Source: Patescibacteria group bacterium
Lineage (GTDB): Bacteria; Patescibacteriota; Patescibacteriia; Magasanikbacterales; GWA2-37-8
Direction of reading: 5' to 3'
Assembly: GCA_004321885.1 (NCBI GenBank)
Contig: SCQK01000005.1
Location: forward strand, 1 to 38,966
DNA: 38,966 nt
Part shown: in pieces, positions 3,568 to 33,631 of the stretch
Numbering within the stretch: the stretch's first letter is position 1
How the letters are laid out: every line of letters begins with the position of its first letter
The notes under the pieces: model-generated
What the model was told of the DNA's origin: nothing
Seen by the model: the letters and a program-made list of their open reading frames with translations, nothing else
Databases searched by the model: none
Position numbers and translations under genes: made by a program

Positions 3568-3618
3568 TGAAATTTTCAATGCTCAATGATCAATTTTCAA
3601 TCAATTATCAATTCGCAA

Positions 3619-3673
3619 TTGGAAATTGATAATTGGAAATTCATTGGAAATTGTAAATTGTAAATTGGAAATT
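3619..3673. promoter_or_regulatory. array of TTGGAAATT/GTAAATT direct repeats in mraZ-rsmH intergenic region
   Basis: aattggaaattgataattggaaattcattggaaattgtaaattgtaaattggaaatt; same motif (reverse complement) recurs at 8153-8169. Confidence 0.4.
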
Positions 3674-3675
3674 AT

Positions 3676-4599: not shown

Positions 4600-4608
4600 A
4601 TTTCGTTT

Positions 4609-4989: not shown

Positions 4990-5368
4990 TTTTTGTGGTA
5001 CAATACTGGCTGTTATGCCTATTCTTGTATTACAACGGCTGGCCTTGGAAGCGATTCTGGATTTTTTTTATTGGCCTTTTTGGTGGTACAGCAAAGGCGC
5101 GGCGCACGCGGCCAAATGGTGCGCGCATTTGTTTAGAAATATTGAGAACTCTTTGGCGCCCGGGCTGTGGTTGAAAAACATATTCGTGCCCATGTACGGC
5201 CAATACGACTGGCAAGGCCGGCTGGTCAGTTTCTTCATGCGCCTGATACAAATAATTTTCCGCGGCATCGCCGCGTTGGTATTTTTATTGGTTTGTTTCG
5301 GGTTGTTTTTGGTTTGGCTGGTTTTGCCGGTTATTGTTTTGTACGGGTTAGTTTCCGCCATATTGTGA
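4973..5368 (+). CDS. small hypothetical membrane protein
   Basis: ORF 4973..5368, hydrophobic segments (ILAVMPILVLQ; IAALVFLLVCFGLFLVWLVLPVIVLYGLV); no recognisable family. Confidence 0.35.
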   Translation: MWPSDNFCGTILAVMPILVLQRLALEAILDFFYWPFWWYSKGAAHAAKWCAHLFRNIENSLAPGLWLKNIFVPMYGQYDWQGRLVSFFMRLIQIIFRGIAALVFLLVCFGLFLVWLVLPVIVLYGLVSAIL

Positions 5369-5369
5369 T

Positions 5370-8150
5370 ATGCTGTTTGAGAAAAATCCGCCGTTAAATA
5401 TAATGACCTGCCCGACGTGTAAATCCACGGGCCGGGCCGGTTGGAAAAAATGTCCCGAGTGCGGGGGCATGGCTTTGGGTCACGCGGCGCGCAACAAGTG
5501 GCTGTTTTGGGATTATCCGCTGGTTCGGCACCATCTTTTGCTGGAAAAAGGCCGGCGCGTGCTAAACAGAATCCGCGTGCTGACGGCTCTGTGCGCCGGC
5601 GTTGTGGCTTGGCTGGGCGCTGGTTTGGAAATTTACAAGCAATACAAAAAATTGCCGTTTAATTTATTTTCGCCCGCGGAGTGGCTGGACACTCTCGCTG
5701 GTTTGAACGTGCCGGGAAAATTTTTATTCTGGCTGGGCCTGGCCGCTTTTTGTTATGTCTGGTATCGCTCCATTCGGCACGGCGAGTTCATGGGGCAGGT
5801 GGAAAAATTTGATTACAACATGGATTCCAGCTCCCGGGCTGGAATGACAGTCACGCCCGCGAATTGGCGCGAGGCCAGAAAACTGGCGCGTGTCAAAAAG
5901 CGCAACATCGCCAAGGCCTTTACCGAAGAAGCGCTGAAAATTTTGGGCGAGGCGTATTTTTTCGCGGACAGGAACGGACAGCGCGAAGTGGCGCCCGCGC
6001 ATTTGTTCGCCGCCCTGCTTACTTCCAATCGCATCAGCAATGTTTTTTCACGGCTGGGTCTGCCCGCCGAGCAGGTGTTGAAAAAATTAACCCCGATTTT
6101 GCAGGCGCAGTCCAAGAGCCAAGACCATTTCACCATGCCTTTGCCTTCGGCGGATTTTTGTCAGGCGTTGTTCGTGGCGTACGAAGAAGCATACAACGGA
6201 CATCAGGAATACGTGAGCGTGACCGAGCTTTTGGCCGCGGCCGTGAAACAAACTCCGGAAATACAAGAATTGCTTTTTGATTTGAACGTCAACCATCAGA
6301 AGCTGGCCAACGTGATTGAGTGGGCGCGCATCAGGGAAAAACTTTATCGCCAGTATTTGCGTTTGCGCCGCGCCGCCTCGCATCATTCCAAACACGGCAT
6401 GGACAAAGCCATGACCGCCATCGCCACGCCATACCTGAATCAGTTCAGCGAAGACATGACTATGCTCGCGCACTTCGGCCATCTGGACGAGTGCGTGGCG
6501 CGCGAAACCGAAACCCAGGAAATTTTCCGCGTCATAGAAGGCGGACAGGCGAACGTTCTGCTCGTGGGCGATTTTGGCACAGGCAAAAGTTCCATCGTGG
6601 AAGGCATCGCCGGAAGAATGCTGACCGACGACGTGCCGGCGCGCTTGCGCGATAAGCGTTTGGTGCGGCTTAGCGTGCCGTCGCTGTTGGCCGGTACCAC
6701 TCCGGCCGGAGCCGTGGAGCGTTTGCGCAACATCATGAACGAGATGGCTCGCGCGCGCAACATTATTTTATACATCCACAATTTACACGAACTTATCGGC
6801 GTCTCGGCCGGCACGGGCAAGGGCAGTTTGGACGTGGCCGACACCTTGGCCGAGTTTTTGGGTGGGGGCCGGTTTCTCACCATCGCCGACACCACTGACG
6901 AATTTTTCGCCCAGCTGGTCGCCAGCACGGCCATCGCCAATGTTTTCACCAAAGTGGAAATTCCGGAAGTGGACGAAAACCAGGCCATTCAGGTTTTGGA
7001 ATCAAAAGCCGGACAGTTGGAATACAAACACAACGTATTTTTTTCCTACGACGCCCTGGAGCGCGCGGTTCAGCTCTCGGCCAAGTTTTTGCACGACACG
7101 CGCTTGCCGGGCAGCGCCCTGGAAGTGATGACCGAAGCCGCCAGTTTGACGCGCAGTAAAAAAGGCGAAAATACTTTGGTGACGGGCGAAGAAGTGGCCA
7201 AAGTGATTTCCGAGAAAAGCAAAGTGCCGGTGACAACAGTCACCAGCGACGAGTCGGCCAAACTTCTACAACTGGAAGAAGAGATGCACAAGCGCGTCAT
7301 CGGGCAGGATGAGGCCGTGAATTTGGTGGCCAACGCTTTGCGCCGCGCGCGCGCCGAGATACGCAGCGGCAAAAGACCCATCGCCAACTTTTTATTCATG
7401 GGTCCGACCGGCGTGGGCAAAACCGAGCTGGCCAAAACCATCGCCGAGGTGTATTTTGGCGGCGAGGAGCGCATGATACGTTTGGACATGAGCGAATTTC
7501 AGGAAGGCGGCAGTATTTACCGCATGATAGGCACGCCCGGGCAAAAGGGCACCGGCATTCTTACCGAAGCCGTGCGCAGTCATCCGTTTTCGCTTTTGCT
7601 TTTGGATGAAATTGAAAAAGCGGACAAAGACGTGTTAAACTTGTTTTTGCAGGTGATGGACGACGGCCGGCTCACCGACAGCACGGGCCGGGTGGTGGAT
7701 TTTACCAACGTGATTTTAATCGCCACTTCCAACGCCGGCACGTCGTATGTGCAGGAGCAAATGCGCGCCGGGCTGTCCAGCGAGGCCATCAAAGAGCGTT
7801 TGCTTCACGGTGAATTGAATAATTATTTTAGGCCCGAGTTTTTGAACCGCTTTGACGGAATAGTGTTGTTTAAGGCATTAGAACGCGAAGATATAAAAAA
7901 GATTGCCGGATTGATGCTGGCGCGCATCGGCAAGAATTTGGAAGAAAAAGGGATTGAGCTTGAGGTGGGCGACCCGGCATTGGAATTTTTGGCCCACATT
8001 GGTTTTGACCCGGAGTTTGGCGCGCGACCCATGCGTCGCGCTTTGCAGGAAAGGGTGGAGAATAAATTGGCTGAGTTGTTGTTGGGTGGGAAGCTCAAAC
8101 GAAAAGATAAGGTGGTGATAGGGGAAGGGGGAGAGATAACGGTGAAATGA
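5370..8150 (+). CDS. ClpC/ClpA-like double-AAA+ ATPase with N-terminal zinc ribbon and membrane anchor; degenerate D1 Walker B
   Basis: N-term CPTC...CPEC zinc ribbon then TM helices; two Clp-N repeats; D1 Walker A GDFGTGKSSIVEGIAGRM, D1 Walker B position reads ILYIHNLHELIG (IHN instead of IDE); D2 Walker A GPTGVGKTELAKTIA and Walker B/sensor LLLLDEIEKADKDVLNLFLQVMDDGRLTD. Confidence 0.8.
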   Translation: MLFEKNPPLNIMTCPTCKSTGRAGWKKCPECGGMALGHAARNKWLFWDYPLVRHHLLLEKGRRVLNRIRVLTALCAGVVAWLGAGLEIYKQYKKLPFNLFSPAEWLDTLAGLNVPGKFLFWLGLAAFCYVWYRSIRHGEFMGQVEKFDYNMDSSSRAGMTVTPANWREARKLARVKKRNIAKAFTEEALKILGEAYFFADRNGQREVAPAHLFAALLTSNRISNVFSRLGLPAEQVLKKLTPILQAQSKSQDHFTMPLPSADFCQALFVAYEEAYNGHQEYVSVTELLAAAVKQTPEIQELLFDLNVNHQKLANVIEWARIREKLYRQYLRLRRAASHHSKHGMDKAMTAIATPYLNQFSEDMTMLAHFGHLDECVARETETQEIFRVIEGGQANVLLVGDFGTGKSSIVEGIAGRMLTDDVPARLRDKRLVRLSVPSLLAGTTPAGAVERLRNIMNEMARARNIILYIHNLHELIGVSAGTGKGSLDVADTLAEFLGGGRFLTIADTTDEFFAQLVASTAIANVFTKVEIPEVDENQAIQVLESKAGQLEYKHNVFFSYDALERAVQLSAKFLHDTRLPGSALEVMTEAASLTRSKKGENTLVTGEEVAKVISEKSKVPVTTVTSDESAKLLQLEEEMHKRVIGQDEAVNLVANALRRARAEIRSGKRPIANFLFMGPTGVGKTELAKTIAEVYFGGEERMIRLDMSEFQEGGSIYRMIGTPGQKGTGILTEAVRSHPFSLLLLDEIEKADKDVLNLFLQVMDDGRLTDSTGRVVDFTNVILIATSNAGTSYVQEQMRAGLSSEAIKERLLHGELNNYFRPEFLNRFDGIVLFKALEREDIKKIAGLMLARIGKNLEEKGIELEVGDPALEFLAHIGFDPEFGARPMRRALQERVENKLAELLLGGKLKRKDKVVIGEGGEITVK

Positions 8151-8152
8151 CA

Positions 8153-8169
8153 AATTTCCAATTTCCAAT
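8153..8169. promoter_or_regulatory. AATTTCCAATTTCCAAT direct repeats (reverse complement of TTGGAAATT array at 3619)
   Basis: caaatttccaatttccaatg in intergenic region after ClpC-like gene. Confidence 0.35.
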
Positions 8170-8182
8170 GTCAAATTTGACA
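8169..8182. promoter_or_regulatory. perfect 14-nt palindrome TGTCAAATTTGACA upstream of MraY/WecA-like gene (candidate operator)
   Basis: self-complementary tgtcaaatttgaca ~70 nt upstream of ATG 8251. Confidence 0.35.
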
Positions 8183-8250
8183 TTAGTCATCGGACATTGA
8201 TTGGAAATGCTTCCCTTCGGTCAGAAAAAGGGTAATTAAAATTTGATATT

Positions 8251-9285
8251 ATGGCTTATTTTTTTTCTGCCTTTCTACTATCTGTATTGCTTACATTTAT
8301 AGTAAGAAAGCTCGCGATACGTTTGAATGTGATGGATATTCCCGATGGCGGGAGAAAGGCACACTCCGGAAAGGTGCCGCTTCTTGGGGGAGCGGCGATT
8401 TTTTTTGCGTTTTGGGCCGTGATTTTTTATTTGTTTTTTTATCCGACAGCCGGAGTGGAACTTTTACAAGAAAAATTATTGGCGGCATTTTTCGCGAGTT
8501 TGGTAATCATGGTTATTGGTTTTATTGATGACGCGCGGCCGCTTCCAGCCAAAATCCGTTTTTTGATCACGGCTTTGGCCATCGGCGCGGCGGTTTTATT
8601 TACGCCGTGGCTCGGAAAAATCACCAATCCGCTGGGCGGGGTTTTGGAATTGGGTTTGGTGTTTGGCAATGTGCTTGCTTTTTTCTGGCTGCTCGGCATG
8701 ACTTATACCACTAAAATTTTGGACGGTTTGGATGGGTTGGCGACGGGTATAGCGGCTATCGGCGCTTTGATGATATATTTTTTATCCAGTTCGCAAAAGT
8801 ATCATCAACCCAACGTGGCGTTGTTGGCGCTGATTTTAGCCGGGGTCCTGTTCGGGTTTTTGCTTTTCAATTTTCATCCGGCCAAGATTTTTTTGGGCGA
8901 GAGCGGCAGTTTGCTGGTTGGTTTTTTACTCGCAGTGCTCGCCATCATCGCCGGCGGCAAAATCGCCACGGCTTTACTCGTGCTCGCTATTCCCATTTTG
9001 GATTTGGCGCGCGTCGTTTATTTGCGTTTGGCGCGGGGCCAGCCGATTTCGCAAGGCGACCGCGAACATTTGCATTTTCGTTTGCTTGACATGGGCATGA
9101 GCCAGCGCCGCGCCGTGCTTTTGCTTTACGGCGTCGCGCTTGCTTTTGGATTGTCCACTTTGTTTTTACAGTCATATCAAAAGTTAATCGCCTTGCTTTT
9201 TTTGGTTGTAGCCATGGGCGTGGCGGGCGTGTGGTTGCGCCGACGTTCCCCTCCCCTTTATAAGGGGAGGGATAGGGAGGGGTAA
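8251..9285 (+). CDS. polyprenyl-phosphate sugar-phosphate transferase, MraY/WecA (GT4/PNPT) family; C-terminal 13 codons are a family-1 repeat
   Basis: multi-TM; DIPDGGRKAHSGKVPLLGG, IGFIDDARPL, KILDGLDGLATG motifs of MraY/WecA family; tail RRRSPPLYKGRDREG is translated palindromic element. Confidence 0.8.
   Translation: MAYFFSAFLLSVLLTFIVRKLAIRLNVMDIPDGGRKAHSGKVPLLGGAAIFFAFWAVIFYLFFYPTAGVELLQEKLLAAFFASLVIMVIGFIDDARPLPAKIRFLITALAIGAAVLFTPWLGKITNPLGGVLELGLVFGNVLAFFWLLGMTYTTKILDGLDGLATGIAAIGALMIYFLSSSQKYHQPNVALLALILAGVLFGFLLFNFHPAKIFLGESGSLLVGFLLAVLAIIAGGKIATALLVLAIPILDLARVVYLRLARGQPISQGDREHLHFRLLDMGMSQRRAVLLLYGVALAFGLSTLFLQSYQKLIALLFLVVAMGVAGVWLRRRSPPLYKGRDREG
9246..9282. repeat. family-1 palindromic element (inside 3' end of CDS; provides SD for next gene)
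   Basis: ttcccctcccctttataaggggagggatagggagggg. Confidence 0.8.
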
Positions 9286-15390: not shown

Positions 15391-15792
15391 ATGGATTGCT
15401 TATTTTGTAAAATAGCAAACAAGGAAATTCCAAATTACACGATCTATGAAGACGAGAGCGTGCTGGCTTTTTTGGATATTCACCCCTGCGCCAAGGGACA
15501 CACGGTGGTGATACCAAAAAAACATTTTGCCGACGCGGGCGAAATGGACGACGTTAGTTGGGGCGCGCTGATGGGCGGATTAAAAAAAGCCGCGGCCATT
15601 ATTTACGCGAAAATTAAGCCGGATGGAATGAATATCGGCGCGAATGACCGGCCGGCGGCCGGGCAGGCGGTGGGGCACGCGCATTGGCATATTATTCCGC
15701 GCTGGGAGGGCGATGGCGGCGCCAGTATGCACGGGATTATTCGGAAGGGGAGCGCTGAGGCGGTGGAGGTGACTGCGAAATTATTTAAATAA
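15391..15792 (+). CDS. HIT-family (histidine triad) nucleotide hydrolase
   Basis: CLFCKIANKEIP N-terminus and histidine triad GHAHWHIIPR. Confidence 0.85.
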   Translation: MDCLFCKIANKEIPNYTIYEDESVLAFLDIHPCAKGHTVVIPKKHFADAGEMDDVSWGALMGGLKKAAAIIYAKIKPDGMNIGANDRPAAGQAVGHAHWHIIPRWEGDGGASMHGIIRKGSAEAVEVTAKLFK

Positions 15793-15816: not shown

Positions 15817-16344
15817 ATGTCCACAATTTCTTCGGAAATAATTCATGAAAATCCGTGGTGGAAATACAAGCACGACAAGTACTCGCTCGCTAACGGCGTG
15901 AAAGGCGATTATTATTTCGGCGAGTCAAACGGTAACGTGATGGTGCTCCCCTTGTTGGATGACGGGCGGTTGACGTTGACCAGGCAATACCGTTATTTGC
16001 GCGATAAGCCGAGTGTGGAATTTCCGGGCGGCGGGGTTCGTGCGGACGAATCGCCGACCGAAGCGGCCAAACGCGAACTGCTGGAAGAAACCGGCTATGT
16101 CGCCGAAGAATTGAATTTAATCGCCGAATTTGAAGGGCTCAACGGACTTTTTAAGGACCACACCAGTTTGTTTCTCGCCACCGGCTTGACCCTGACACCC
16201 AACGTCAAACCCGACGATTCAGAAATAATGGAGGTTTTCTACCGCCGCCCCGACGAGTTTGATGAGATGCTCAAAAATAACGAGATTTGGTGCGGGCAAA
16301 CCCTGGCCGCTTGGGCCATTGCCCGCGACAGGATAATGCAATAA
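15817..16344 (+). CDS. NUDIX hydrolase (ADP-ribose pyrophosphatase-like)
   Basis: Nudix box [23 protein letters not shown]. Confidence 0.85.
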
Positions 16345-16348
16345 TTTT

Positions 16349-17554
16349 ATGACCGAAGGCAGAGGCAGACACGGCCTTTCTTGGTCGGATTTACAAAAAA
16401 AGCCGGAAGAAAAAAAGCCGGATGTGCGACGAGAAGCCGGGAAGCGCGGATTATTCAAGCTCTTGGAAAATTCCAATCTGGCTAAAGCCATTGTTTTTGC
16501 CTTGGGTATTTCGGCTGCTCCGGAAACGGTGGGTTTTGGGAAAAGAGCTGAAAGCGCGGTTGTTCAAAAACAGGAAAAAATATCCGCACCGAAAATTTCT
16601 AAACCGGAGACAGCGGTTGAACAAGAGATTAAACCGGACGAGAGGTCGGTGGAAGAAATATTTTTAAGCGAGCTTCCTTACAGAAAGAATAAGAGAGAGC
16701 GCGATTTTTTAATAAAGAAAACGAACGACCGGTTGCGCGACGAAAGCGGCAATTTCAATAAAACAAGATTTGGCGAGCAGGATAGTATGTTAAGAGCGGC
16801 GCATCGTCAGTATTTGGCAACAGCGGCCGACAGCCCGGAAATTAAGGCAAAAAAGGCCGCGGAAAGACAGCGGACGTTAGAGCTTGTGGAAAAAGCGTGC
16901 GTTAAATACGGGGTACCTCTGCAAGTGGCTTTGGGCGTGGCGGAAATTGAGAGTTATGGCTCGCATTATGGCAAGGGCGGCCAGGTGACAAGGTCGGAAA
17001 AAAACGCCTTTGGTATTTTTCAGGTAAAGGTGGGCGGCCTGCTTGACGCCATCTCGGCGGACAGCGGGGCCATACCCGACGGCTTCTGGAAGTGGAAAGA
17101 AGCGCAAAAGAAAAAAGGAAGGAAAAACAAAGCCGGTAAGAGAGAAAAAATTTGGGATATGCGAAAAGCGGCGCCTCTGATTGAGCGGTTAAAAAACGAC
17201 CGGAATTTTAACATTGACATCGGCGTGCGTTTGCTGGCGAAAAACAGGCGGGTTTACACCGGCGGCCGCAGCTGGGCTTTCGCGCTGGCGATGTATCATC
17301 AGGGGGTTGGCAACGTAGCTAAAGCGTTTGTGGAGAAATTCAAAAGACAAGGCCTGGCGCCGAAAAAATTAAAAAGAGAACTTTATCCGCTGTTTTTGAA
17401 GAAAGCGATTAAGCGCGGCACGGCCCTGGCGACTGATATCAAAGACGGTTATCCATATCGGGTGGGAGTGGGCCAGCAGCTTTTTTCTATTTTACAAAAG
17501 GGCGAAATAGATTCTATTGAAAAATCAAAATTAACTCCTCCGCATAAAAAATAG
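16349..17554 (+). CDS. lytic transglycosylase (SLT-domain) protein
   Basis: VALGVAEIESYGSHYG...NAFGIFQV and ALAMYHQGVGNV resemble SLT family-1 catalytic E-S and AYNxG motifs; N-terminal hydrophobic anchor. Confidence 0.6.
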   Translation: MTEGRGRHGLSWSDLQKKPEEKKPDVRREAGKRGLFKLLENSNLAKAIVFALGISAAPETVGFGKRAESAVVQKQEKISAPKISKPETAVEQEIKPDERSVEEIFLSELPYRKNKRERDFLIKKTNDRLRDESGNFNKTRFGEQDSMLRAAHRQYLATAADSPEIKAKKAAERQRTLELVEKACVKYGVPLQVALGVAEIESYGSHYGKGGQVTRSEKNAFGIFQVKVGGLLDAISADSGAIPDGFWKWKEAQKKKGRKNKAGKREKIWDMRKAAPLIERLKNDRNFNIDIGVRLLAKNRRVYTGGRSWAFALAMYHQGVGNVAKAFVEKFKRQGLAPKKLKRELYPLFLKKAIKRGTALATDIKDGYPYRVGVGQQLFSILQKGEIDSIEKSKLTPPHKK

Positions 17555-17619
17555 TGAAAAAATAAGATAGAACATATACGGTAGAAAGTTTTTCGGGAAT
17601 GTAGTATACTAAGGGCAAT

Positions 17620-19395
17620 ATGAAAACCGATATTGGCGATTTTAGCGCCATGGATGAGCAACCAGAAAATAAAAAAAGCATCATCCCCAAGACGCCGCCC
17701 AACGTCAACTTTTTCGCGATGACGAATTATAGAAACATCAATCGCCGCTTTGGCATAAAATTGGATGACCGGCGCCGGCACATGTATGTGGTGGGCAAGA
17801 CCGGCATGGGCAAAACCACCATGCTGGAAAACATGATATTAAACGACATCTACGCCGGGCACGGGGTGGGCTATGTGGACCCGCACGGCGACACGGCCGA
17901 AAAGCTCATCAATTATATTCCGGCCGGCCGCATCAATGACGTGGTCTATTTCAATCCGGCCGATATCAACTTCCCCATTGGCTTTAATATCTTGGAAACC
18001 ATTTCGCCCGACCACAAACATTTAGTCGCCTCGGGCCTGATGGGCGTGTTCAAAAAAATCTGGCCCGATGTGTGGAGCTCGCGCATGGAATATATTTTGA
18101 ACAACACCATTCTGGCGCTTTTGGATTACCCGGGCACCACCTTGCTTGGCATCAACCGCCTCTTGGCCGACAACACTTACCGCCGCCGCGTGGTGGGCGC
18201 GCTGAAAGACCCGGTGGTCAAAGCCTTTTGGCAAACCGAGTTCGCCAATTACAACGACAAGTACAGACAGGAAGCCGTGGCTCCGATTCAAAACAAAATC
18301 GGCCAGTTTTTGTCGGCTTCAGTGATACGCAATATCGTGGCGCAAGTAAAATCGCGCATTGACATCCGCGAAATAATGGACAGCGGCAAGATATTGATAT
18401 TGAATTTGTCCAAAGGCCGCATCGGCGAAGACAACTCGCGTCTGCTCGGCGGCATGCTTATCACCAAAATTCAGCTCTCGGCCATGGAGCGCGTGGATAT
18501 TCCGCCGGAAAAGCGCAATGATTTCTTTTTGTATGTTGACGAGTTTCAAAATTTTGCCACCGAAAGCTTTGCCAATATCTTGTCCGAGGCGCGCAAGTAC
18601 AATCTGGAGCTGATAATGGCGCACCAGTACATGGAACAGCTTGACGAGAAAGTGCTGGCCGCCGTGGTGGGCAACGTGGGCACCACGGTCTCTTTCCGCA
18701 TCGGCTCCACGGACGCGGAAATTTTGGCCAAAGAATTCGCGCCGGTTTTTACCGAGCAGGATTTGGTGAATCTGGCCAAGTATCAGATTTATTTGAAGCT
18801 GATGATAGACGGGGTGGCTTCACAGCCTTTTTCCGCCATTACTCTGCCGCCCATAAACAAGGCCACCAACAGCGCCGATAAAGTGATTCGCGTGTCGCGC
18901 GAGCGCTATGCCGTGGAGCGGGAAAAAATAGAAGACAAAATCGCGCGCTGGAGCGGCCTGGTGATTACCACCGGCGAAGACGCCGCGGAGATGGAAGCCG
19001 GGGAAGACGAGGAAATGTTTAAGCCAGCGCCGGCGCCGGTCAAACCGGCTCCACAGCCTCCCCCGATAAATCGGGGTCGGACTATGGAGCCAGCGGTAAG
19101 CAAACCGGCTCCACAGTCCGCCTTTGGCGGAACTATGGAGCCAGCGGCCAGCAAACAGCGTCCGCCGGAAAAGAAAGAAAATAAAAAAGTTTTCAATCCA
19201 TCCAAGGGTGAACAGGTGACGATTGTTGACACGACCCAGAAGGGAATATCCCTCAAAAATCTAACACCCAAAGCAAGTCCGACTCCACCCGTCCAACGGC
19301 CCATCACGCCGCCGGCGCCGCCTCAGAAAAAGACCCCGCCGCTTTCCGGCGCCCGCCCCTTGAGTCCGGGGCAAGTTGCCAGGTTTGATGAATAA
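17620..19395 (+). CDS. FtsK/HerA/TraD(VirD4)-superfamily P-loop ATPase with Pro-rich repetitive C-terminal tail
   Basis: Walker A YVVGKTGMGKTTMLENMI, Walker B FLYVDEFQNF, EARKYNLELIMAHQ motif typical of TraD/TraG/HerA (DUF87) ATPases; no N-terminal TM; C-terminal tandem peptide repeats KPAPQ..TMEPA. Confidence 0.65.
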   Translation: MKTDIGDFSAMDEQPENKKSIIPKTPPNVNFFAMTNYRNINRRFGIKLDDRRRHMYVVGKTGMGKTTMLENMILNDIYAGHGVGYVDPHGDTAEKLINYIPAGRINDVVYFNPADINFPIGFNILETISPDHKHLVASGLMGVFKKIWPDVWSSRMEYILNNTILALLDYPGTTLLGINRLLADNTYRRRVVGALKDPVVKAFWQTEFANYNDKYRQEAVAPIQNKIGQFLSASVIRNIVAQVKSRIDIREIMDSGKILILNLSKGRIGEDNSRLLGGMLITKIQLSAMERVDIPPEKRNDFFLYVDEFQNFATESFANILSEARKYNLELIMAHQYMEQLDEKVLAAVVGNVGTTVSFRIGSTDAEILAKEFAPVFTEQDLVNLAKYQIYLKLMIDGVASQPFSAITLPPINKATNSADKVIRVSRERYAVEREKIEDKIARWSGLVITTGEDAAEMEAGEDEEMFKPAPAPVKPAPQPPPINRGRTMEPAVSKPAPQSAFGGTMEPAASKQRPPEKKENKKVFNPSKGEQVTIVDTTQKGISLKNLTPKASPTPPVQRPITPPAPPQKKTPPLSGARPLSPGQVARFDE

Positions 19396-19401
19396 AAAAA
19401 C

Positions 19402-19430
19402 GCTGGCTCCATACTATGTGTGGAGCCAGC
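19402..19430. terminator. bidirectional hairpin terminator between convergent ATPase and rplT genes
   Basis: gctggctcca-tactatgtg-tggagccagc 10-bp stem; A-run upstream gives U-run for minus-strand transcripts. Confidence 0.6.
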
Positions 19431-19439
19431 AGTTGGTAA

Positions 19440-20588: not shown

Positions 20589-20632
20589 TGTGAATTATTT
20601 GTGTCGTTTCGTGTTATAGGATTAGTGGTTCG

Positions 20633-21043
20633 TGGAGGTGGCGAGAGTTGAACTCGCGTCTAGAGAGCCATGATTATACCTTCTACATAATTAGTTCGGC
20701 TTGGTATTTTACCGAAGGGATAAAAGCGAACGAAAATCTCTTCGGCTAGCCGCTGAATTTTGGGTCTGTCGCCAGACCCCATTTTCTCAAAAGCGCGCGG
20801 CCTAACTTTTGAGTAAGCCCGGAAGTGGCACCGCTTTTAGCCGACGGGCGTAGCTAAGGCGATGGTCAAACGCAAATTAAGCGAATGACGGAGCCAAGGC
20901 GCGAACGCCAAACATGTTGGCGAACGCTACCTTAACTTTTGAGAATAAGTTGGCACTTATTGTGTTGCTTTGCTATTTGCGAGGCCAAAGCCGCCTCGTT
21001 ATGCCAATATAACCATCTGCTTCTATCGAAGCCCATCACCCCC
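20633..21043 (-). ncRNA. ssrA: tmRNA (SsrA), ~411 nt, not in ORF track
   Basis: minus-strand 5' end GGGGGUGAUGGGCUUCGAUAG matches tmRNA consensus GGGGxUGAxxGGxUUCGAC; 3' end GACGCGAGUUCAACUCUCGCCACCUCCA nearly identical to E. coli GACGCGGGUUCAACUCCCGCCAGCUCCA (T-arm + acceptor, G3:U70 pair); CCA not encoded; candidate tag ORF ANMFGVRALAPSFA-UAA (approx 20877-20921); immediately downstream of smpB. Confidence 0.85.
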
Positions 21044-21482
21044 GGCTTTTCAAGGTTCGTTGTATTTCTCTCTTCGCGTCGCGGCGCTTGATGACCTCTC
21101 TTTTATCGTATTGCTTGCGCCCGCGCGCCACTCCTATTTCCACCTTGACAAATCGGCCTTTAATATACACCCGCAAAGGCACTATTGTCAAGCCCTTTTC
21201 CATTGATTTGCCGCGCAAATAAGCGATTTCTTTCTTGCGTAAAAGCAAGCGGCGCGTGGCCGCGGGGTCGTATTCAAGCATTTTGCCGGCCGGTTTGTAC
21301 TTGGCGATATGCATGTTTATGATATCGGCATTGTCGCCATGGAAAGTAACATAAGCGCCTTTCAAATTTATCTGCCCGTTTTTGGCCGACTTGGTTTCCT
21401 GGCCCGACAACACTAAACCAGCCTCTAATTTTTCCAGAATTTCATAGTCAAATAGTGCTTTGCGATTTTCGGCGAGTTGCAT
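21036..21482 (-). CDS. smpB: SsrA-binding protein SmpB
   Basis: C-terminal 148 aa of ORF 21036..21941 (MQLAENRKALFDYEILEKLEAGLVLSGQETKS...HDPAATRRLLLRKKEI...GLTIVPLRVYIKGRFVKVEIGVARGRKQYDKRE) match SmpB; ATG at 21480-21482 preceded by TATAAT; upstream 153 aa of ORF are basic low-complexity and overlap a real membrane-protein gene on the other strand. Confidence 0.88.
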   Translation of the reverse strand: MQLAENRKALFDYEILEKLEAGLVLSGQETKSAKNGQINLKGAYVTFHGDNADIINMHIAKYKPAGKMLEYDPAATRRLLLRKKEIAYLRGKSMEKGLTIVPLRVYIKGRFVKVEIGVARGRKQYDKREVIKRRDAKREIQRTLKSRG

Positions 21483-21513
21483 ATCGCGCTCTATTATACT
21501 ATAATATCGGCGT

Positions 21514-22305
21514 ATGTTCAAACGGCTGTCTCTCCACCCCAAACTGGTGGCGGTTGTTGATACGCTCATTACCCTGGCCATGCTGTGGTGGCTGAATGGG
21601 ATGAGCTCAAAAATTGTTTTGGCGCTCTGGTTTGTTTTTCGTCTGGCCATCTGGGCCGGTTTTATAAAACTGATGTATTTTTCCGCCGGCGCCAGCCGCG
21701 CGCGCCATTTTTTGTCTTTATTGATTTTTTGCGCGGGCCTGCTGACATTTATTCTTTTTACCGAGTGGACGCCGGCGCGCCTGCTCTTTGAAGCAATTTT
21801 CGCGCTCTTTCCTTTTTTTGGTTTTTGGCTTTTGCCGGCCTCGGAGGCCGGCCTTCCCACTTTTTTGAAGCCCCATTCGCGCCTGTCGTTTATGATGTGC
21901 ATCATCGGTCTGGCCGGAATTTTCGCTTTGGTCTCCGCCATCTCATCGTTTCAACTGCTCACCAGCGTCAGCGCGTGGGTGTGGATTGTTTTAGCTTCGC
22001 TCGTCGCTACGGCCGTGGCTGGCTGGTGGTGGTTTGAGTACGGCCTGAAAGTGGACGACAAGTTTATTTCCCGTCTCGCCATTTGGTTTGTGATGTTTTT
22101 GGAATTTTTATGGGTGATTCTAATACTGCCGTTCGGATACATGGTAAATGGCCTGCTCACCATTTGGTGCTGGTATATTTTGTGGCTTTTGATGCGCTTT
22201 AACATGACCGAAGAGGGAATCAAGTGGCGCAAGCAGGCGCTGTTTCTGGTTTCAAACGTTGTTTTATTTGTGGGATATTTGCTGTTGGCGGTTAAGTGGA
22301 AATAA
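21514..22305 (+). CDS. hypothetical polytopic membrane protein (263 aa)
   Basis: multiple hydrophobic helices, W-rich; no family recognised. Confidence 0.5.
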   Translation: MFKRLSLHPKLVAVVDTLITLAMLWWLNGMSSKIVLALWFVFRLAIWAGFIKLMYFSAGASRARHFLSLLIFCAGLLTFILFTEWTPARLLFEAIFALFPFFGFWLLPASEAGLPTFLKPHSRLSFMMCIIGLAGIFALVSAISSFQLLTSVSAWVWIVLASLVATAVAGWWWFEYGLKVDDKFISRLAIWFVMFLEFLWVILILPFGYMVNGLLTIWCWYILWLLMRFNMTEEGIKWRKQALFLVSNVVLFVGYLLLAVKWK

Positions 22306-26024: not shown

Positions 26025-29000
26025 ATGGTTAAGCCTGGTGATAAAAACGAAAAAGCGAAACCCGCCCCCAATAACGGCGAGGCAAATTTTACGGCGGAAA
26101 ATAAAATGATTAGAGCGCGAATTGAGCAGTTGTTTTCTGAATTGAGCGCTCTGGCGCAAGAGGTGCGCAAAAGACCGGGAATGCAGTCTGAACTTAATCA
26201 AATGCTTGAAACTCTTGCTAAACAGGAAACCAAAATCTCCTCATTGGATAAAGATAAGGTTGCTGAATTAGAAGAGGAATTGCAAAAATTGGAAGAGAGA
26301 ACACAGGAGTTAATTGATGAGATGAAAGAAGAAGAAAGGTTATACAGGGAAGAAGAAGCGCCGGACGCGGTGGATTATTCCAAGGAAGACAGCCAGGAGC
26401 GGCGACAGAGGCTGCTTAAATTTGGCAAAGACCTGAAAGAAATTGTTGATTTTTTTGAGCAGGGAGCTAACAATGACGCGGAAAAAATATTTTTGCAAAG
26501 CGCCATAGAATTATTGGAGGAAGGCAAAAAATTGGATATAACCGCCATGAACCATCCACTCGCAAAGCAATTGCCCGACGATTGGTTTGTGGATGTTGAC
26601 GCGTTCGTCAATAAAGCAAAACAACTGTATACAAAGTTTTCAACGTATAAGTTTGAATATGCTAAAAAGATAGTTCCAGGCGAGCCTAAGCCAAAAGAAC
26701 CGGTAAAACAGGAAGCGCCGACAAAGGAGAGCGAGACACCCGCTTCCACGGGGGCGGAAGCCGCGAAAGAAGTTCCGGCGTATTTGAAATTGGCCGCCGA
26801 GGTGGAGCGCATGGGGTTGGAATTAAAAGAGGCGCTTGATTCACCCAAAGCGCCGGCGGTGAAAAAGAACGCCATCAGGCTCGTTTTAGAAATGGCGAAT
26901 AAGCCCGGTAATGTTATTTCCAGGGTAAAGGACAATAATAAATGGGTTAAGGCGGCGCAAAATTGGTTAAGTTTGGCAAGAACGGCGCTGGAAGAACAGG
27001 CGCCGGCGGTACCCGCGCCGGCTGATGCCAAAGCCGCGTCAAATAATGAAAAAAATAAAGCAAAGAGCGACAGCTTGCTTTTCAACAAGTTGGTCCGGCA
27101 TCTACACGAAAAATTCAGTGATTTATTAAAATCAGATAAGGCTTTAATAAAGAGGCTTAAGGGACTGAAAAAACTTTTTGGCTACCCTGAATTTGACGGA
27201 GAGTTTGTTTCGCTCCTCAAAGACCTTGGCGTTAATCCGGATGATGTCAAAAAAATTGTTATAAAAGAATCCGACCGGAAGGATAAACGCGAAGAAAAGG
27301 AAAAAGGAAAGAAAAAAGATTACAAGTTTGAAATCAAAGGCGCGCGCCGGATTTTACGGGATGCCGTAAAACTGATTAATGACCCTGAAAAAGCCAAACC
27401 ATACAGAAAATTAATCGGGCAACTTGGCGAATTTAGTGAAATTTTTAACGCGCTTAGGAAAGATAAATTAACAGACCAAAAAAGGCAAGAATTGCAACAA
27501 AAAAGAAAAGATTTGCTTCATAAAAAACCCGATGGAATTTTCACGCAGGACGCGCAAAACAGCGATTTGCTGGAGAATGCGAAAAGAATAATCGCGTCCG
27601 CGGCCGGCGCCGTCCAACCCAAGCCCGGCAAATCGCCGAGCGCCGTGAAAACAACCGGCGCCGCTTCTACTCCGGCGCCCGCCAAGACACCCGATGCTCG
27701 GACAGTTGCAGCACCGTCTGCCCCGCGCGCGCCCTCACTAGCTCCGCGGGTGGATACGGGCTCGGCGTCGGCCGCGGCTGTGGACACGGCTCCGCCCGCG
27801 CCTCCGCCTCCGACGCCGCCCGACACTGCCCCACGCGAACCAGAACCAGAACCAGAACCAGAACCGCGCCCGGTTAAAAAAATTATTGACATCAAAGAAA
27901 CAGCGCTTTTGGAATTGATGAAACCGCACAAATTGCAGGAGGTTGTCAATCAGTTGATTCAGGGCAACGCGGCTGTCGCCGAAACCCTGTTTAGCAATAT
28001 CTTCGCGCGCGACGATGTTGATTTAGAAAGATTGCGCGAAGTGGTGGGACAGGACGGCTACACATCGGAAGAATTCAAAAATCTGTGGCTGGAACAGCTT
28101 CATAAACGCCCGTTTCGGATGATAAAAGACAATTTGGAACAGATGACGCGGAATTTTATCGCGCAAAACACCGGTAAAATAGAAAAAATTATACAAAAGT
28201 TGCCGGCGGCGAAAGCGATTATTCTGCAGGCATTGCCTTATCTGGCCATCGCCGGCGCCGGATTTTTTGCGGCCTTGACAGGCGGCGGCATTATCGGGCT
28301 TACCGCGGCCGGCGCGGCTTCGGGTCTTTGGCGCGGCATTTCCAAAAAAGTGGAAGGCGTGCGCGGCTGGATTTCCAAAAAAACCAAACAATTCAAGCAA
28401 AAAGGAGACGAAAGAGAGGCCTATAAAGAAAAAGAACAAAGAGAAGGCCTTTTGTTGATGCGGGATTTGATGGCGCAGTTTAATAATAATCAGGAATTGC
28501 TTTCCCAGTTGTCGTCAATGATCAGCCAGGGCTTGCGCGAGAGCAGCGCCCAAGAACGCGCCGAGTCTTTGGGCAAAGACAGAAACACAATTATCGCCAA
28601 CGCGGAACTGGCCATCGGGCAAATAAAAGAAAAATCCGAAGAAGAATACAGGCATGGTATTGGCAGAAAAGGCGAGGCAGACGCGCGCCTTGATAAAGAA
28701 AGCCAGGGCCGGCGCGCCGAGGCGCTTATCATGAAATTATACGAAAGCAACGAGATGGAAGATTTGATCCAGGAAGCCCTGCAAAAAGACCCGAAATTTA
28801 TCAGAGTACTAAAGGGAATAAACGCCTTGAAAAGTCTTGATTTGGATGAACTGGTTGAATCAGCCACGGGCAGGCGCGCTGATGTTGCCAAAAAAGAAAG
28901 CACCCTGAAAAAAGTCGCCTGCATCCTTGCTTCCGGAATTGCCGGCGGCGCCGTGGCCTATGGCCTGTCGGCGCATAATGCCTGGAGGCCGGTGGTAGCT

Positions 29001-31361
29001 GGTTTGGTCGGCGCTTATTTGGGCGCCAGATTTGGGCATCATCGGGAGATTAAGGCCCGCCAGCGTGAGTTCGCGGCCGAGTTTGAAAGAAATGTGGACG
29101 AGGCAGAGCAGGTTATCATAGAATACGAGGCCGTTACCGATTTAGCCGCGTGGCTGGGTGCTGATGGCGAAGAAAAAATTCGTCAATTGCAAAACAGGGC
29201 CAGAAAGTTGCGCACTCCTTTAACCTTGGGCATGCTGGACGATAATAAGCCTTTGAAATATCGGGCGCAAAACGCCTTGCGGCGCGTGGAAGCGATTTGG
29301 CTGACTATTTATTTGAATAATTCGGATATAGGTATAACAAGAAGAACATTTGACCCGGCTGTGGAAGGACCGGAAGGCGCCAGTGAAAGAGATGTGCACA
29401 CAGATAGCGCCGTGGAAAATTTGCTTACAGTCCTAGACAGGGAAGTGGAGATTCTTACCGAGGACCAAAAAGAGGTAAAGGAAACATTAACCAAAAAACC
29501 GGGCTGGTGGAAAACTTTTGCTTGGAGTCTTGCCGGCGCCGGGGGCGCGGGATTGCTGGCTTATGAAATACAGGGTTGGCGGGAGAGCGGCAAAAAATTG
29601 GACGAAGCCGGCTTTATGCCACAAGAGGAACCGCCGGCAAGCGGAGGCAGGGGAGACGCGGCTGGCGCGGCAGACACGGCCAGGGCCGCGAAAGGACAGA
29701 TAAAGCCGTTGCCCGGCGAGATTGAATTTCATCCGCCAACGGCCACTGAAAAGAGTCGGGTGTTTTTGGAAAATATGGGCGCCAAGCCAGGGGCTGGCAA
29801 TAAATTTACCATTGAACTTGGCAAAGGCGAGACGCCGGCAAACAAGTCGGAATTTTTCCGTTTGCTGGCTTTGAACGGAATGAAAGGTAAAGTGCTGGGT
29901 GATGACGGAGTTTTATCGCCTCTGGAACAAGGCAAGGTGTTGAATGTGGGCAGGAATATGCTGGAATTGGCTGGCGGGGCCAAAGCGCGCGGCGGTTTGC
30001 CGCTGGCGGATTTCAAAGAGCATTTCAGTATGAAAGGCAATAAAGTTACCATTACTGATTTTGATAAATTTCAGGAAAAAATAATCGGCAAATTGTCGGC
30101 GCACGCGGATGAAAAATTTACCAAGCAGACCATGGCCGACACGCGCGCCGGAAAAATGACCGCTATAAAATACGGGGCCCGCGCCAACTGGGAAAAAGAT
30201 TTTGCTAAAATTGGTTATGAGGCCAACGCGCCCCGCGAGCATTTTGTTGTGCCCGAAGACGTGAAAGATATAAAAGATGAAGTAGTTGACCCGGACGCTG
30301 GCAAAGCGCCGGCAGACGCGCCCGAAGCTCAGGCCGCCACCAAACCTGAACAGGTTTTTGAAGTGGACAGGAATGTATTTGGAGTGGAAAAACACCTGGA
30401 ACTCACAAACAGCGAGACAAAAATCGTTGACGCTGCCATTCGCAAAATGGATTGGATAGCGAATAAAACCCATCTATCCGGCGATGGGCTGGAGAATTGG
30501 AGCAAGGCCTTTGGAACGATGGATGACGCCATGGACCGCCTGCAAACAAATCTTCACGACCCGGATTCTTTGGCAAAGTTAAAATATATTGGTTCATTAT
30601 CAGCCGCGGAACTAAGCAAAACACCCGACACAAAATTTGCCGCCATAATAGACAATATTAAAGGCGGGTCAAAAGGAGGCGGGGGAGGGGCTGATGAAAT
30701 TGTCCAAAAAGGCGGCAAGGCCAAGGTGGCGGCGGTTGAGGCGGCAGAACCAAAAGCGTCTGAGTGGATCGCGGGCCATAAAGCGGCCGAATACCAAGAA
30801 TTTGTTGATCGTGTTAAAGGCGGTAGGGATTTGTTTGTGAAAAGAATGATAAAAACATCCGGAATTAGTGAAGGTAAACTTGATGAACTCTTGCAAAAAT
30901 TTGCGCGCGGGCATAAGGGAATAAATTTGACTAACGCTGAAACTGAAGAAAAGTTTCGGACTTGGCTGGCCATGGAATTGGAAGAGTCAGGAACCGCGTC
31001 AGCGGCAGTAACGGAAAAATTATCCACAGCCAACCCCGTGGCCATAGGCGAAGCCAAGGGTGGGCAAAAGTTGGTACAATTTTTGGACAACAAAGGCAAA
31101 ACGCGCTCCTTGGAAATAGCTGAAAAATTTGAACCCAAGAAAGGAGAAAAAGGAATTGTTTCGCTCGTCATGGACATTACGGACAAAAACGGCACGTATC
31201 AAGCGCGTCAAGACGGAAAATTTGAAATGAGAATGATAGGACACAAAAAAATGCCGGTGTTTGTTATTAGTAAAATGGAGGGTGAGGGAAGCGCGGCAAA
31301 GGATGTAGAGCATATTTACGCTATAAAAAATAATGGTCGTGAGATAGTATTGCAGAAGTGA
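26025..31361 (+). CDS. giant hypothetical protein (1778 aa): N-terminal coiled coil, Pro-rich linker, three central hydrophobic segments, ~800-aa C-terminal region
   Basis: single uninterrupted ORF with consistent codon usage; hydrophobic segments LPYLAIAGAGFFAALTGGGIIGLTAAGAASGLW, VACILASGIAGGAVAYGLSAHNAWRPVVAGLVGAYLGARFG, WWKTFAWSLAGAGGAGLLAYEI; PEPEPEPEP linker. Confidence 0.7.
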   Translation: MVKPGDKNEKAKPAPNNGEANFTAENKMIRARIEQLFSELSALAQEVRKRPGMQSELNQMLETLAKQETKISSLDKDKVAELEEELQKLEERTQELIDEMKEEERLYREEEAPDAVDYSKEDSQERRQRLLKFGKDLKEIVDFFEQGANNDAEKIFLQSAIELLEEGKKLDITAMNHPLAKQLPDDWFVDVDAFVNKAKQLYTKFSTYKFEYAKKIVPGEPKPKEPVKQEAPTKESETPASTGAEAAKEVPAYLKLAAEVERMGLELKEALDSPKAPAVKKNAIRLVLEMANKPGNVISRVKDNNKWVKAAQNWLSLARTALEEQAPAVPAPADAKAASNNEKNKAKSDSLLFNKLVRHLHEKFSDLLKSDKALIKRLKGLKKLFGYPEFDGEFVSLLKDLGVNPDDVKKIVIKESDRKDKREEKEKGKKKDYKFEIKGARRILRDAVKLINDPEKAKPYRKLIGQLGEFSEIFNALRKDKLTDQKRQELQQKRKDLLHKKPDGIFTQDAQNSDLLENAKRIIASAAGAVQPKPGKSPSAVKTTGAASTPAPAKTPDARTVAAPSAPRAPSLAPRVDTGSASAAAVDTAPPAPPPPTPPDTAPREPEPEPEPEPRPVKKIIDIKETALLELMKPHKLQEVVNQLIQGNAAVAETLFSNIFARDDVDLERLREVVGQDGYTSEEFKNLWLEQLHKRPFRMIKDNLEQMTRNFIAQNTGKIEKIIQKLPAAKAIILQALPYLAIAGAGFFAALTGGGIIGLTAAGAASGLWRGISKKVEGVRGWISKKTKQFKQKGDEREAYKEKEQREGLLLMRDLMAQFNNNQELLSQLSSMISQGLRESSAQERAESLGKDRNTIIANAELAIGQIKEKSEEEYRHGIGRKGEADARLDKESQGRRAEALIMKLYESNEMEDLIQEALQKDPKFIRVLKGINALKSLDLDELVESATGRRADVAKKESTLKKVACILASGIAGGAVAYGLSAHNAWRPVVAGLVGAYLGARFGHHREIKARQREFAAEFERNVDEAEQVIIEYEAVTDLAAWLGADGEEKIRQLQNRARKLRTPLTLGMLDDNKPLKYRAQNALRRVEAIWLTIYLNNSDIGITRRTFDPAVEGPEGASERDVHTDSAVENLLTVLDREVEILTEDQKEVKETLTKKPGWWKTFAWSLAGAGGAGLLAYEIQGWRESGKKLDEAGFMPQEEPPASGGRGDAAGAADTARAAKGQIKPLPGEIEFHPPTATEKSRVFLENMGAKPGAGNKFTIELGKGETPANKSEFFRLLALNGMKGKVLGDDGVLSPLEQGKVLNVGRNMLELAGGAKARGGLPLADFKEHFSMKGNKVTITDFDKFQEKIIGKLSAHADEKFTKQTMADTRAGKMTAIKYGARANWEKDFAKIGYEANAPREHFVVPEDVKDIKDEVVDPDAGKAPADAPEAQAATKPEQVFEVDRNVFGVEKHLELTNSETKIVDAAIRKMDWIANKTHLSGDGLENWSKAFGTMDDAMDRLQTNLHDPDSLAKLKYIGSLSAAELSKTPDTKFAAIIDNIKGGSKGGGGGADEIVQKGGKAKVAAVEAAEPKASEWIAGHKAAEYQEFVDRVKGGRDLFVKRMIKTSGISEGKLDELLQKFARGHKGINLTNAETEEKFRTWLAMELEESGTASAAVTEKLSTANPVAIGEAKGGQKLVQFLDNKGKTRSLEIAEKFEPKKGEKGIVSLVMDITDKNGTYQARQDGKFEMRMIGHKKMPVFVISKMEGEGSAAKDVEHIYAIKNNGREIVLQK

Positions 31362-31439: not shown

Positions 31440-31600
31440 TACCTGTTCCCAAAACAGGTGTTTTTGGGTATAAATAATATAGTCTTTGAAAATTAAAGTA
31501 GGTTTGGCGCTTGGCGCCACAACAGGGCAACGATAAGGACGTGCCCTAACAGCGAGCCACGACAAGGACGAGCTCGCAAACGGAGAGAATGGAGAGAGAG

Positions 31601-33487: not shown

Positions 33488-33572
33488 CCGAGCGCTCTTT
33501 CCGCGGCGTGTGTGAGTATGTAAGCAGAGGTGAATGAAAATTCCTTCCGCTTCCCTCCCACTCCACACGCCA

Positions 33573-33620: not shown

Positions 33621-33631
33621 ATTCAAATTTT

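Follow-up and report, generated by a model that had tools for sequence, protein, structure and literature searches.

A VirD4/VirB4-type ATPase in a Magasanikbacteria-like contig, candidate motor of a three-part system of Patescibacteria

Type IV coupling proteins (T4CPs) are the closest described relatives of a group of P-loop ATPases encoded in Patescibacteria. According to a recent survey (Quinonero-Coronel et al. 2025, PMC12102498), 2,918 genomes of this phylum hold 5,713 homologues of the VirD4-type T4CPs, of which 148 lie near virB4; exaptation of these homologues is something that its authors could not rule out. Thousands of such “orphan” VirD4-like genes are thus carried by Patescibacteria, and the survey noted their rarity near type IV secretion systems (T4SSs). 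Here we analyze one gene of this kind in a complete 38,966-bp contig (“the window”) of a Magasanikbacteria-like metagenome-assembled genome from the Patescibacteria, or candidate phyla radiation (CPR). The gene encodes a VirD4/TrwB-type ATPase (EPN28_01185) and follows, on the same strand, a gene for a lytic transglycosylase with an SLT domain (EPN28_01180). A preliminary description of this DNA had placed the two adjacent genes at 16349–19395, where both the open reading frame (ORF) calls and the NCBI annotation also have them as a co-directional pair (Table 1), and had read them as a VirB1-like plus VirD4-like pairing that may be a remnant or minimal translocation module.

Our data lead to another reading. 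In our view the ATPase is rather likely to be a motor that has become detached from a strongly conserved three-part system of the ultra-small Patescibacteria, made up of a PF26449 protein, the ATPase and a zinc ribbon, and its adjacency to the SLT gene is best read as incidental. A supposed mini secretion module is thereby replaced by a testable system that is supported by gene fusions.

The ATPase and its conserved partners

The ATPase passed the Pfam cut-offs of TrwB_AAD_bind (40.5 bits against 20.5), TraG-D_C (26.9 against 22) and T4SS-DNA_transf (25.0 against 20.1), and it failed those of FtsK_SpoIIIE (17 against 24) and DUF87, the HerA family (22.1 against 23.2). The NCBIfam models of TraD, VirD4, VirB4 and CedD all scored far under their cut-offs, with 45.8 against 366 for SXT_TraD, 34.9 against 250 for conju_CD1115 and 19.9 against 643 for VirB4_CagE. 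Among solved structures, a sequence match came only from DotL and TrwB, around Walker A and Walker B. Taken as sequence evidence, the Pfam matches favour a T4CP over VirB4.

Conservation of the protein is high. Identity over the core is 65–83% across thousands of genomes; a homologue search gave more than 8000 word-sharing matches, the best 120 of them at 62–100% identity, and the representative clusters numbered 23,486 with a limit of E<=1e-3 and 6,599 with a limit of E<=1e-30. The ATPase, judged from these alignments, is a core gene under very strong purifying selection, with a T4CP/VirB4-type core that is predicted to be catalytically intact. This does not agree with the idea of the preliminary description that we are dealing with the remnant or minimal form of a translocation system.

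An AlphaFold 2 model of the window ATPase from 37 close homologues was unusable (predicted local distance difference test, pLDDT, 50.6), and a fused homologue (P0138), whose ATPase part has 53% identity, was modelled in its place from 142 diverse sequences (pLDDT 87.5, predicted template modelling score 0.80). In the P0138 model, a long hydrophobic helix at the N-terminus is followed by an alpha/beta N-domain (residues ~50–420) and by a RecA-like ATPase domain into which seven helices are inserted; the tail is disordered. More than 900 columns of the model were aligned by Foldseek to full-length TrwK/VirB4, with a poor global superposition. The predicted fold puts the ATPase in the VirD4/VirB4 branch of the FtsK-HerA superfamily and would suit a T4CP as well as a VirB4. 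The earlier assignment to a VirD4/TraD/HerA superfamily is therefore confirmed: the closest sequence and fold matches are T4CPs, and of the models that had been proposed for checking it, TrwB_AAD_bind and T4SS-DNA_transf are above the Pfam cut-off and DUF87 is just under it.

To place the gene in its context we used two synteny sets, one of 80 genome loci around ATPase relatives (81 loci with the window) and one of 80 metagenome loci retrieved with a PF26449 fragment. The lineages among the 80 genomes include Magasanikbacteria, Uhrbacteria and Falkowbacteria. In Uhrbacteria-type loci the ATPase gene is always preceded by a gene for a 440–680-residue protein with a hydrophobic N-terminus (family c8), which itself stands behind secD and secF; the accession PF26449 for this protein comes from precomputed annotation alone. 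A PF26449 protein is encoded directly upstream of the ATPase in 29 of the 80 genome loci and in ~30 of the 80 metagenome loci, and the order secD-secF-PF26449 is found in ~45 of the latter.

The two proteins also occur as one. In 64 of the 150 best representative clusters, a PF26449-type domain is fused N-terminally to the ATPase in a single polypeptide of 850–1130 residues, which is a Rosetta-stone fusion. Both parts match the same PHROG profile, phrog_5156, the ATPase at profile positions 407–804 (E 3e-59) and the PF26449 protein at 62–314 (E 1e-9). A third component is a treble-clef zinc ribbon (Pfam zf_Tbcl_2, PF23477). In 18 of 80 loci it is encoded by the gene that directly follows the ATPase gene, and in ~30 Uhrbacteria-type loci and many representatives it lies inside the ATPase tail. 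Our literature search found no mention of DUF8128, PF26449, PF23477 or zf_Tbcl_2.

We found no membrane helix in the window ATPase; the best 19-residue Kyte-Doolittle mean was 1.24, and this segment lies within a core strand. The word “soluble” in the preliminary description is thus correct for this polypeptide, but it does not extend to the relatives, where a PF26449 anchor is fused or encoded just upstream. ATPases adjacent to PF26449 are 61–74% identical to the window core and a second paralogue is only 43–46% identical, and for this reason we regard the window ATPase as the orthologue of the PF26449-partnered copy. In the loci nearest to the lineage of the window, the cluster is broken up. 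An ATPase 79% identical to the window core lies 7 kb downstream of a PF26449 cluster in locus L081, the membrane protein/HIT/NUDIX string of the window type lies 5.6 kb after PF26449 in L098, and PF26449 lies 9.4 kb upstream in L042. Loci L081 and L098 combine the context of the window with secD-secF-PF26449 at a distance of 5–7 kb.

The divergent second paralogue is encoded on the opposite strand, 4–9 kb downstream of PF26449, in five loci (L084, L103, L107, L111 and L140); this fits the figure of about two T4CP homologues per genome in PMC12102498. Two further arrangements of the family were observed. In many Magasanikbacteria loci the ATPase gene is directly followed by a tandem array that encodes four to six paralogues of ~480–520 residues, and these paralogues carry a C-terminal PEP-utilizer mobile domain (PF00391; L004, L009, L012, L014, L022, L026, L042 and L045). 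In a third context the ATPase gene follows ftsW and murG, either directly (L041 and L044) or with one or two small unannotated ORFs between (L039 and L040).

Relatives are also found outside the phylum. Bacillus phage G gp156 (825 residues) is a full-length relative comprising N-domain and ATPase, with 28% identity over the ATPase and a Foldseek E of 6e-51. Its gene belongs to a row (L161, JN638751.1, 86885–98198) together with the TrbL/VirB6-like gp153 and the VirB4-like gp155 (P-loop_TraG); this gp153-gp155-gp156 row looks like a T4SS-like module in a jumbo phage, and a literature search on Bacillus phage G and type IV secretion gave no relevant paper. Among the SPO1-like phages, JL encodes a structural relative over the full length (template modelling score ~0.6 over 870 columns), and several others (CP-51, Shanette, CampHawk and SPO1 relatives) match over the ATPase region. 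Two plasmid contexts were uninformative: a Sulfitobacter gene lies among transposases, and a Priestia megaplasmid region has no annotated features. One protein, P0237 (1,210 residues), has two tandem ATPase domains behind an unrelated N-terminal region, and its composition and sequence look unlike those of Patescibacteria proteins.

In contrast to the core, the C-terminal tail of the ATPase varies in length as well as in sequence, with identities of 0.05–0.22 among relatives and many gaps. It is probably disordered, as the equivalent tail of P0138 was modelled at a pLDDT below 50. Near the C-terminus, a motif of the type P-G-Q-x-[VI]-x-[FLI]-[DE] recurs in many of the 45 relatives listed. The tail also contains a repeat, which the preliminary description had given as ~57 nt long at 19030–19150. 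A Pro-rich tail with a repeat is indeed present, but the repeat is an imperfect duplication of 51 nt at 19081–19182. Its two copies, TMEPAVSKPAPQSAFGG and TMEPAASKQRPPEKKEN, have a matching core of 32 nt with 84% identity, and a weak third copy (63%) lies at 19021–19052. With 27 of 32 positions matching, the similarity exceeds the best of 200 shuffles, which reached 23, and so is above chance; Tandem Repeats Finder reported no repeat in the tail. The segment is a lineage-specific insertion, where relatives have 71% gaps.

A proposed three-part system

From the family, fold, conservation, gene order and fusions of the ATPase, all of which are shown by our analysis, we propose the following arrangement. 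The first part would be the PF26449 protein, which combines a hydrophobic anchor at its N-terminus with a putative cytoplasmic alpha/beta domain of ~350 residues; the second would be the P-loop ATPase of the VirD4/VirB4 clade with its all-alpha insertion; and the third would be the treble-clef zinc ribbon (PF23477). Other lineages have these parts fused in one protein or encoded side by side, typically in the order secD-secF-PF26449-ATPase-(zinc ribbon). In the Magasanikbacteria lineage of the window this cluster appears to have been broken up, and the partners would therefore be encoded elsewhere in the genome.

The ATPase is envisaged as a hexameric ring at the inner face of the membrane, where the PF26449 partner would hold it, and ATP hydrolysis would drive a polymer substrate towards a membrane channel. 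This substrate would most likely be nucleic acid, a best guess suggested by the zinc ribbon together with an all-alpha domain of the T4CP type. A C-terminal P-G-Q-V-x-x-F-D motif is conserved in the disordered tail, which might serve as a tether for a partner or for the substrate.

Several points weigh against this proposal. Neither a PF26449-like nor a zinc-ribbon sequence was found in the 39-kb window by tblastn and six-frame searches with hidden Markov models (HMMs), and action of the partners in trans is, for this organism, inferred. The hexamer, docking in trans, the substrate and the channel are modelled on TrwB, VirB4 and HerA and may differ here. The linkage to secDF could be mere synteny that has no functional meaning. 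Finally, the SLT and ATPase genes are co-directional and 65 nt apart, so that co-transcription is possible.

If the proposal is correct, the window represents a lineage in which the three modules became separate, dispersed genes. It could be speculated further that PF26449 protein, ATPase and zinc ribbon form an undescribed membrane translocation machine that is present throughout Patescibacteria and also in large Bacillus phages, independent of T4SSs and genetically linked to SecDF. We put this wider idea forward tentatively and regard it as somewhat doubtful; if true, such a machine might move nucleic acid or protein in a way that is central to the host-dependent lifestyle. In either case, concrete partners are now at hand for experiments on orphan T4CPs in cultivable Saccharibacteria or other CPR models. 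A warning for annotation also follows, in that the name [quoted passage not shown] in these genomes does not imply that there is a local secretion system.

The SLT gene and competing explanations

The assignment of the upstream gene to the SLT family by the preliminary description was correct. The Pfam SLT match is weak but passing (28.2 bits against a cut-off of 21.3, E 1.5e-6, residues 287–332 only), and all three motifs of the family are present (Table 1). Four positional orthologues (L001, L003, L011 and L017) score 34–71 bits on Pfam SLT, and their three motifs align with those of the window protein. The latter has a K/E/R-rich N-terminal half and a basic insertion of ~45 residues between motifs II (G-x-x-Q) and III (A-Y-x-x-G). 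Its start codon is probably right, since the orthologues share an N-terminal M-x-E-G. A charged N-terminus of 43 residues is followed by a weakly hydrophobic stretch of 14 residues (hydropathy maximum 1.34), which may be a signal anchor; a canonical signal peptide was not recognised, no dedicated predictor having been applied.

When 5.8 billion proteins were searched with the SLT protein, the query was its own sole match, low-complexity words having probably filled the candidate list, and an HMM of the five SLT sequences found no sixth member among the 1,368 ORFs of the 81 loci. The gene is real, probably active and fast-evolving, and its product is a cell-wall lytic transglycosylase that is probably membrane-anchored or exported. 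We conclude that the SLT protein is an ordinary, though divergent, wall enzyme.

Could the SLT protein and the ATPase nevertheless form a minimal or remnant VirB1-like/VirD4-like module, in which the wall is opened locally and the ATPase pumps DNA or protein? The two genes are co-directional with a short gap between them, both families are known from T4SSs (PMC12102498 and PMC12857230), and a relative of the ATPase lies within the T4SS-like gene row of Bacillus phage G. The synteny data nevertheless refute this module in practice, and we regard it as scarcely credible. Of the 81 loci, 5 contain an SLT gene, and it adjoins the ATPase in 2 only, the window and L001. Its position is always directly after NUDIX or HIT, and in the other three loci (L003, L011 and L017) the ATPase follows only after one to four unrelated genes. 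What is kept upstream of the ATPase, in ~30 Magasanikbacteria-type loci, is the order DnaB (on the minus strand), membrane protein, HIT and NUDIX. The slot that follows is empty in 13 loci, where NUDIX or HIT directly adjoins the ATPase; elsewhere it holds one to five genes, such as those for a thermonuclease, a cyclophilin, a PolB-type exonuclease, AMMECR1, a radical-SAM enzyme or a uridine kinase.

A Pfam scan of the 145 genes that immediately flank the ATPase in the 80 genomes gave the same picture. The top families were zf_Tbcl_2 (18), NUDIX (11), PEP-utilizers (10), alpha/beta hydrolases (10) and AMMECR1 (6). There was no T4SS family among the 25 commonest, the single SLT protein being that of L001, and there were no T4SS, pilus or competence families among the window ORFs scanned against Pfam. 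The two genes also evolve at opposite rates, the SLT protein being an orphan that matches only itself and the ATPase being ultra-conserved. In view of the variable synteny and the opposite rates, the adjacency is best read as incidental and the two genes as functionally unrelated chance neighbors.

The main rival to the three-part system is that the ATPase serves in trans as the coupling protein of a chromosomal T4SS of Patescibacteria (VirB4, VirB6 and pilins) that is encoded apart. This would agree with the best sequence and fold matches, which are T4CPs, and with the gene row of phage G, where VirB6-like and VirB4-like genes set a full-length relative in the T4CP position. PMC12102498 adds that T4SSs are widespread in Patescibacteria and that T4CP genes are often unlinked from virB4. 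The same survey also speaks against this explanation, with only 148 of 5,713 T4CP homologues near virB4, with relaxases nearly absent from the phylum, and with Southlakia epibionticum, in which a t4cp homologue (possibly of another family) is non-essential while the T4SS genes are essential. Moreover, the T4SS cluster of Southlakia has no recognisable coupling protein (Wang et al. 2023, PMC10633639), and the linkage conserved around our ATPase is to secDF, PF26449 and the zinc ribbon rather than to T4SS genes. We therefore consider a coupling role in trans unlikely.

Two further explanations draw on other branches of the superfamily. A chromosome-segregation or division translocase of the FtsK/SftA kind, specific to Patescibacteria, would account for the housekeeping-like conservation, for the membrane tethering of the family, for a Pro-rich low-complexity region resembling the FtsK linker, and for the position behind ftsW-murG. 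This linkage to the dcw genes is limited to the four loci given above, however, the score for FtsK_SpoIIIE is under the cut-off, and a gamma domain that would read the FtsK orienting polar sequences (KOPS) was not recognised in the protein, which makes this explanation quite improbable. A HerA-like ATPase for repair or anti-phage defence, with a nuclease partner (of the HerA-NurA, DndH/DptH, MADS or Nezha type), could be argued from a moderate match to PADLOC mad8 of the MADS system (61 bits, E 2.7e-17), from the DUF87 score just under the cut-off, and from plasmids with relatives at 30–40% identity, 289 of 357 of which were typed non-mobilizable. Against it, the conserved neighbors in the 160 loci include no gene for a nuclease, a Sir2 or a NurA-like protein, the near-universal presence and high identity of the ATPase are atypical of defence genes, and DUF87 is, after all, below its threshold. 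There is also no room for an N-terminal HAS barrel, because the core begins ~25 residues ahead of the Walker A strand. A confident HerA/NurA classification, which the preliminary description had named as refuting its own reading, was not obtained, and we hold a repair or defence role to be highly improbable. In assigning an identity to the ATPase, HerA/NurA, FtsK and the defence ATPases were rejected, given the scores below the family cut-offs, the missing partner nuclease and the core-gene conservation.

Other features of the contig and comparison with known systems

The SLT and ATPase genes end a string of five plus-strand genes (Table 1). The gap between the end of NUDIX and the SLT start codon is 4 nt, and promoter-like matches in the SLT-ATPase gap are at noise level (8 sites against 6.0 expected from shuffled sequence). 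The G+C content of the SLT-ATPase region, 0.47–0.53, is like that of most of the contig. Downstream of the ATPase, the opposite strand carries rplT, rpmI, infC, the tmRNA gene and smpB. The hairpin between the convergent ATPase and rplT genes has its U-run on the minus strand (an A-run at 19394–19400 on the plus strand), and we therefore take it for an intrinsic terminator that belongs to the infC-rpmI-rplT operon on the minus strand; plus-strand transcription may stop there as well. We dropped it as a candidate terminator of the ATPase gene itself, the U-run belonging to the other strand. A 9-mer, GGAGCCAGC, is common to this hairpin and both copies of the tail repeat (at 19087 and 19138).

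Table 1. Coordinates of the features discussed, in the numbering of the window.
Feature	Position	Strand	Evidence or remark
Multi-pass membrane protein, 700 aa	13271–15373	+	Upstream context
HIT hydrolase	15391–15792	+	Pfam HIT, 80.9 bits
NUDIX hydrolase	15817–16344	+	Pfam NUDIX, 65.6 bits
Divergent family-1 lytic transglycosylase (SLT domain), 401 aa	16349–17554	+	Pfam SLT, 28.2 bits
Weakly hydrophobic stretch of SLT protein	16478–16519	+	Possible signal anchor
SLT motif E-S (AEIES)	16940–16954	+	Catalytic Glu-Ser
SLT motif G-x-x-Q (AFGIFQV)	17006–17026	+	
SLT motif A-Y-x-x-G (AMYHQGVGN)	17288–17314	+	
VirD4/TrwB-type (FtsK-HerA superfamily) P-loop ATPase, 591 aa	17620–19395	+	Pfam; NCBI start 10 codons later, at 17650
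Conserved ATPase core, residues 28–447	17701–18960	+	Per-30-residue identity 0.66–0.89 over 80 genomes
Walker A, GKTGMGKT	17794–17817	+	Invariant; region aligns with TrwB and DotL
All-alpha insertion, seven helices, residues 130–243	~18007–18348	+	Mapped from P0138 model
Walker B, FFLYVDEF	18523–18555	+	Invariant; region aligns with TrwB and DotL
Sensor-like AHQ	18619–18627	+	Invariant sensor residues
Variable Pro-rich tail, residues 447–591 (145 residues)	18958–19395	+	19% Pro, no Cys
Imperfect 17-codon tandem duplication, TMEPAVSKPAPQSAFGG / TMEPAASKQRPPEKKEN	19081–19131 and 19132–19182	+	Period 51 nt
Short conserved tail motif VTIVDTTQKGISL	19216–19254	+	Conservation
C-terminal tail motif LSPGQVARFDE	19360–19392	+	Conservation
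Hairpin, -25.7 kcal/mol	19399–19434		Between convergent ATPase gene and rplT

Elsewhere on the contig, several other regions drew our attention. Directly behind smpB comes the tmRNA gene (Rfam 130 bits), with an 8-nt overlap with the ORF end (20630–21043 and 21036–21941, both on the minus strand). As listed, the smpB ORF is extended at its N-terminus by ~150 residues rich in Lys and Arg and may be an over-long call. A division and cell-wall cluster with MraZ, RsmH, an FtsL-like ORF and MraY occupies 3124–9285. Between ftsL and mraY the usual occupants are ftsI and mur genes; here a 926-residue double AAA+ ATPase of the Clp/ClpB type (5370–8150) lies between the FtsL-like gene and MraY. The largest gene of the contig, at 26025–31361 on the plus strand, encodes 1,778 residues with no Pfam domain; Lys, Glu and Ala are abundant in this protein, one stretch of it is Ala/Pro-rich, and one or more segments are hydrophobic. 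From 31500 to 38966 the G+C content rises to 0.55–0.69, against ~0.47–0.55 for the rest of the contig, and the ORFs in this part (among them 31589–33487, 33787–34515, 34709–35470 and 35942–36793) are Ala/Pro-rich, some with a hydrophobic segment, and have no Pfam match. A foreign island, or else a chimeric join in the assembly, may account for this part.

When the two genes are set against described systems, the SLT protein shares its domain and the E-S, G-x-x-Q and A-Y-x-x-G motifs with the family-1 lytic transglycosylases (Slt70-type and VirB1-like), from which it differs by the long charged N-terminal half and by the 45-residue basic insertion within the domain. Unlike VirB1-like enzymes, it has no T4SS linkage, its neighbors being HIT, NUDIX and housekeeping genes.

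The ATPase shares with T4CPs (TrwB of R388, VirD4/Cag-beta, DotL and TraD) the P-loop domain, intact Walker A and B motifs and the all-alpha insertion, and its variable C-terminal tail resembles that of TraD. On the other hand, it has no N-terminal membrane helices of its own, and the anchor of its relatives is the PF26449 domain of ~400 residues instead of a short two-helix domain. No relaxase or T4SS genes lie nearby (in the window ORFs scanned and among the 145 neighbors), the gene is chromosomal and ultra-conserved, and its identity to solved T4CPs is only 13–16%. Two features that define T4CPs, a membrane domain of their own and linkage to a T4SS or relaxase, are thus lacking.

Compared with VirB4 (TrwK of R388 and the C-terminal domain of Thermoanaerobacter VirB4, 4ag5), the ATPase has a C-terminal ATPase domain of the VirB4 type, and the fused relatives are similar in size and two-domain layout. 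It does not fit the N-terminal domain or the whole-protein models, no Pfam VirB4-family match was returned, and, according to PMC12102498, Patescibacteria have a separate, recognised VirB4 clade. The HerA hexameric DNA translocase differs by its HAS-barrel N-domain, and a NurA partner was not found in the window or in the 160 loci; FtsK/SpoIIIE differ by the motor domain, for which the ATPase is below threshold, and by the gamma domain. Phage G gp156, the SPO1-like proteins and phrog_5156 have the same architecture of N-domain plus ATPase, with one PHROG profile for both parts. Their genes are viral and fused, however, and that of phage G stands behind VirB6-like and VirB4-like genes, which is not the case in Patescibacteria.

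The T4CP homologues counted by Quinonero-Coronel et al. are almost certainly the same gene population as the ATPase family, as they were matched by VirD4-type HMMs and occur about twice per genome and mostly far from virB4. The excerpts of that account (PMC12102498) make no mention of a PF26449 partner, of its fusion to the ATPase, of a zinc ribbon, of linkage to secDF or of missing membrane helices, and it is in these features that our description differs from theirs. The ATPase of the window belongs to the known population of Patescibacteria T4CP homologues.

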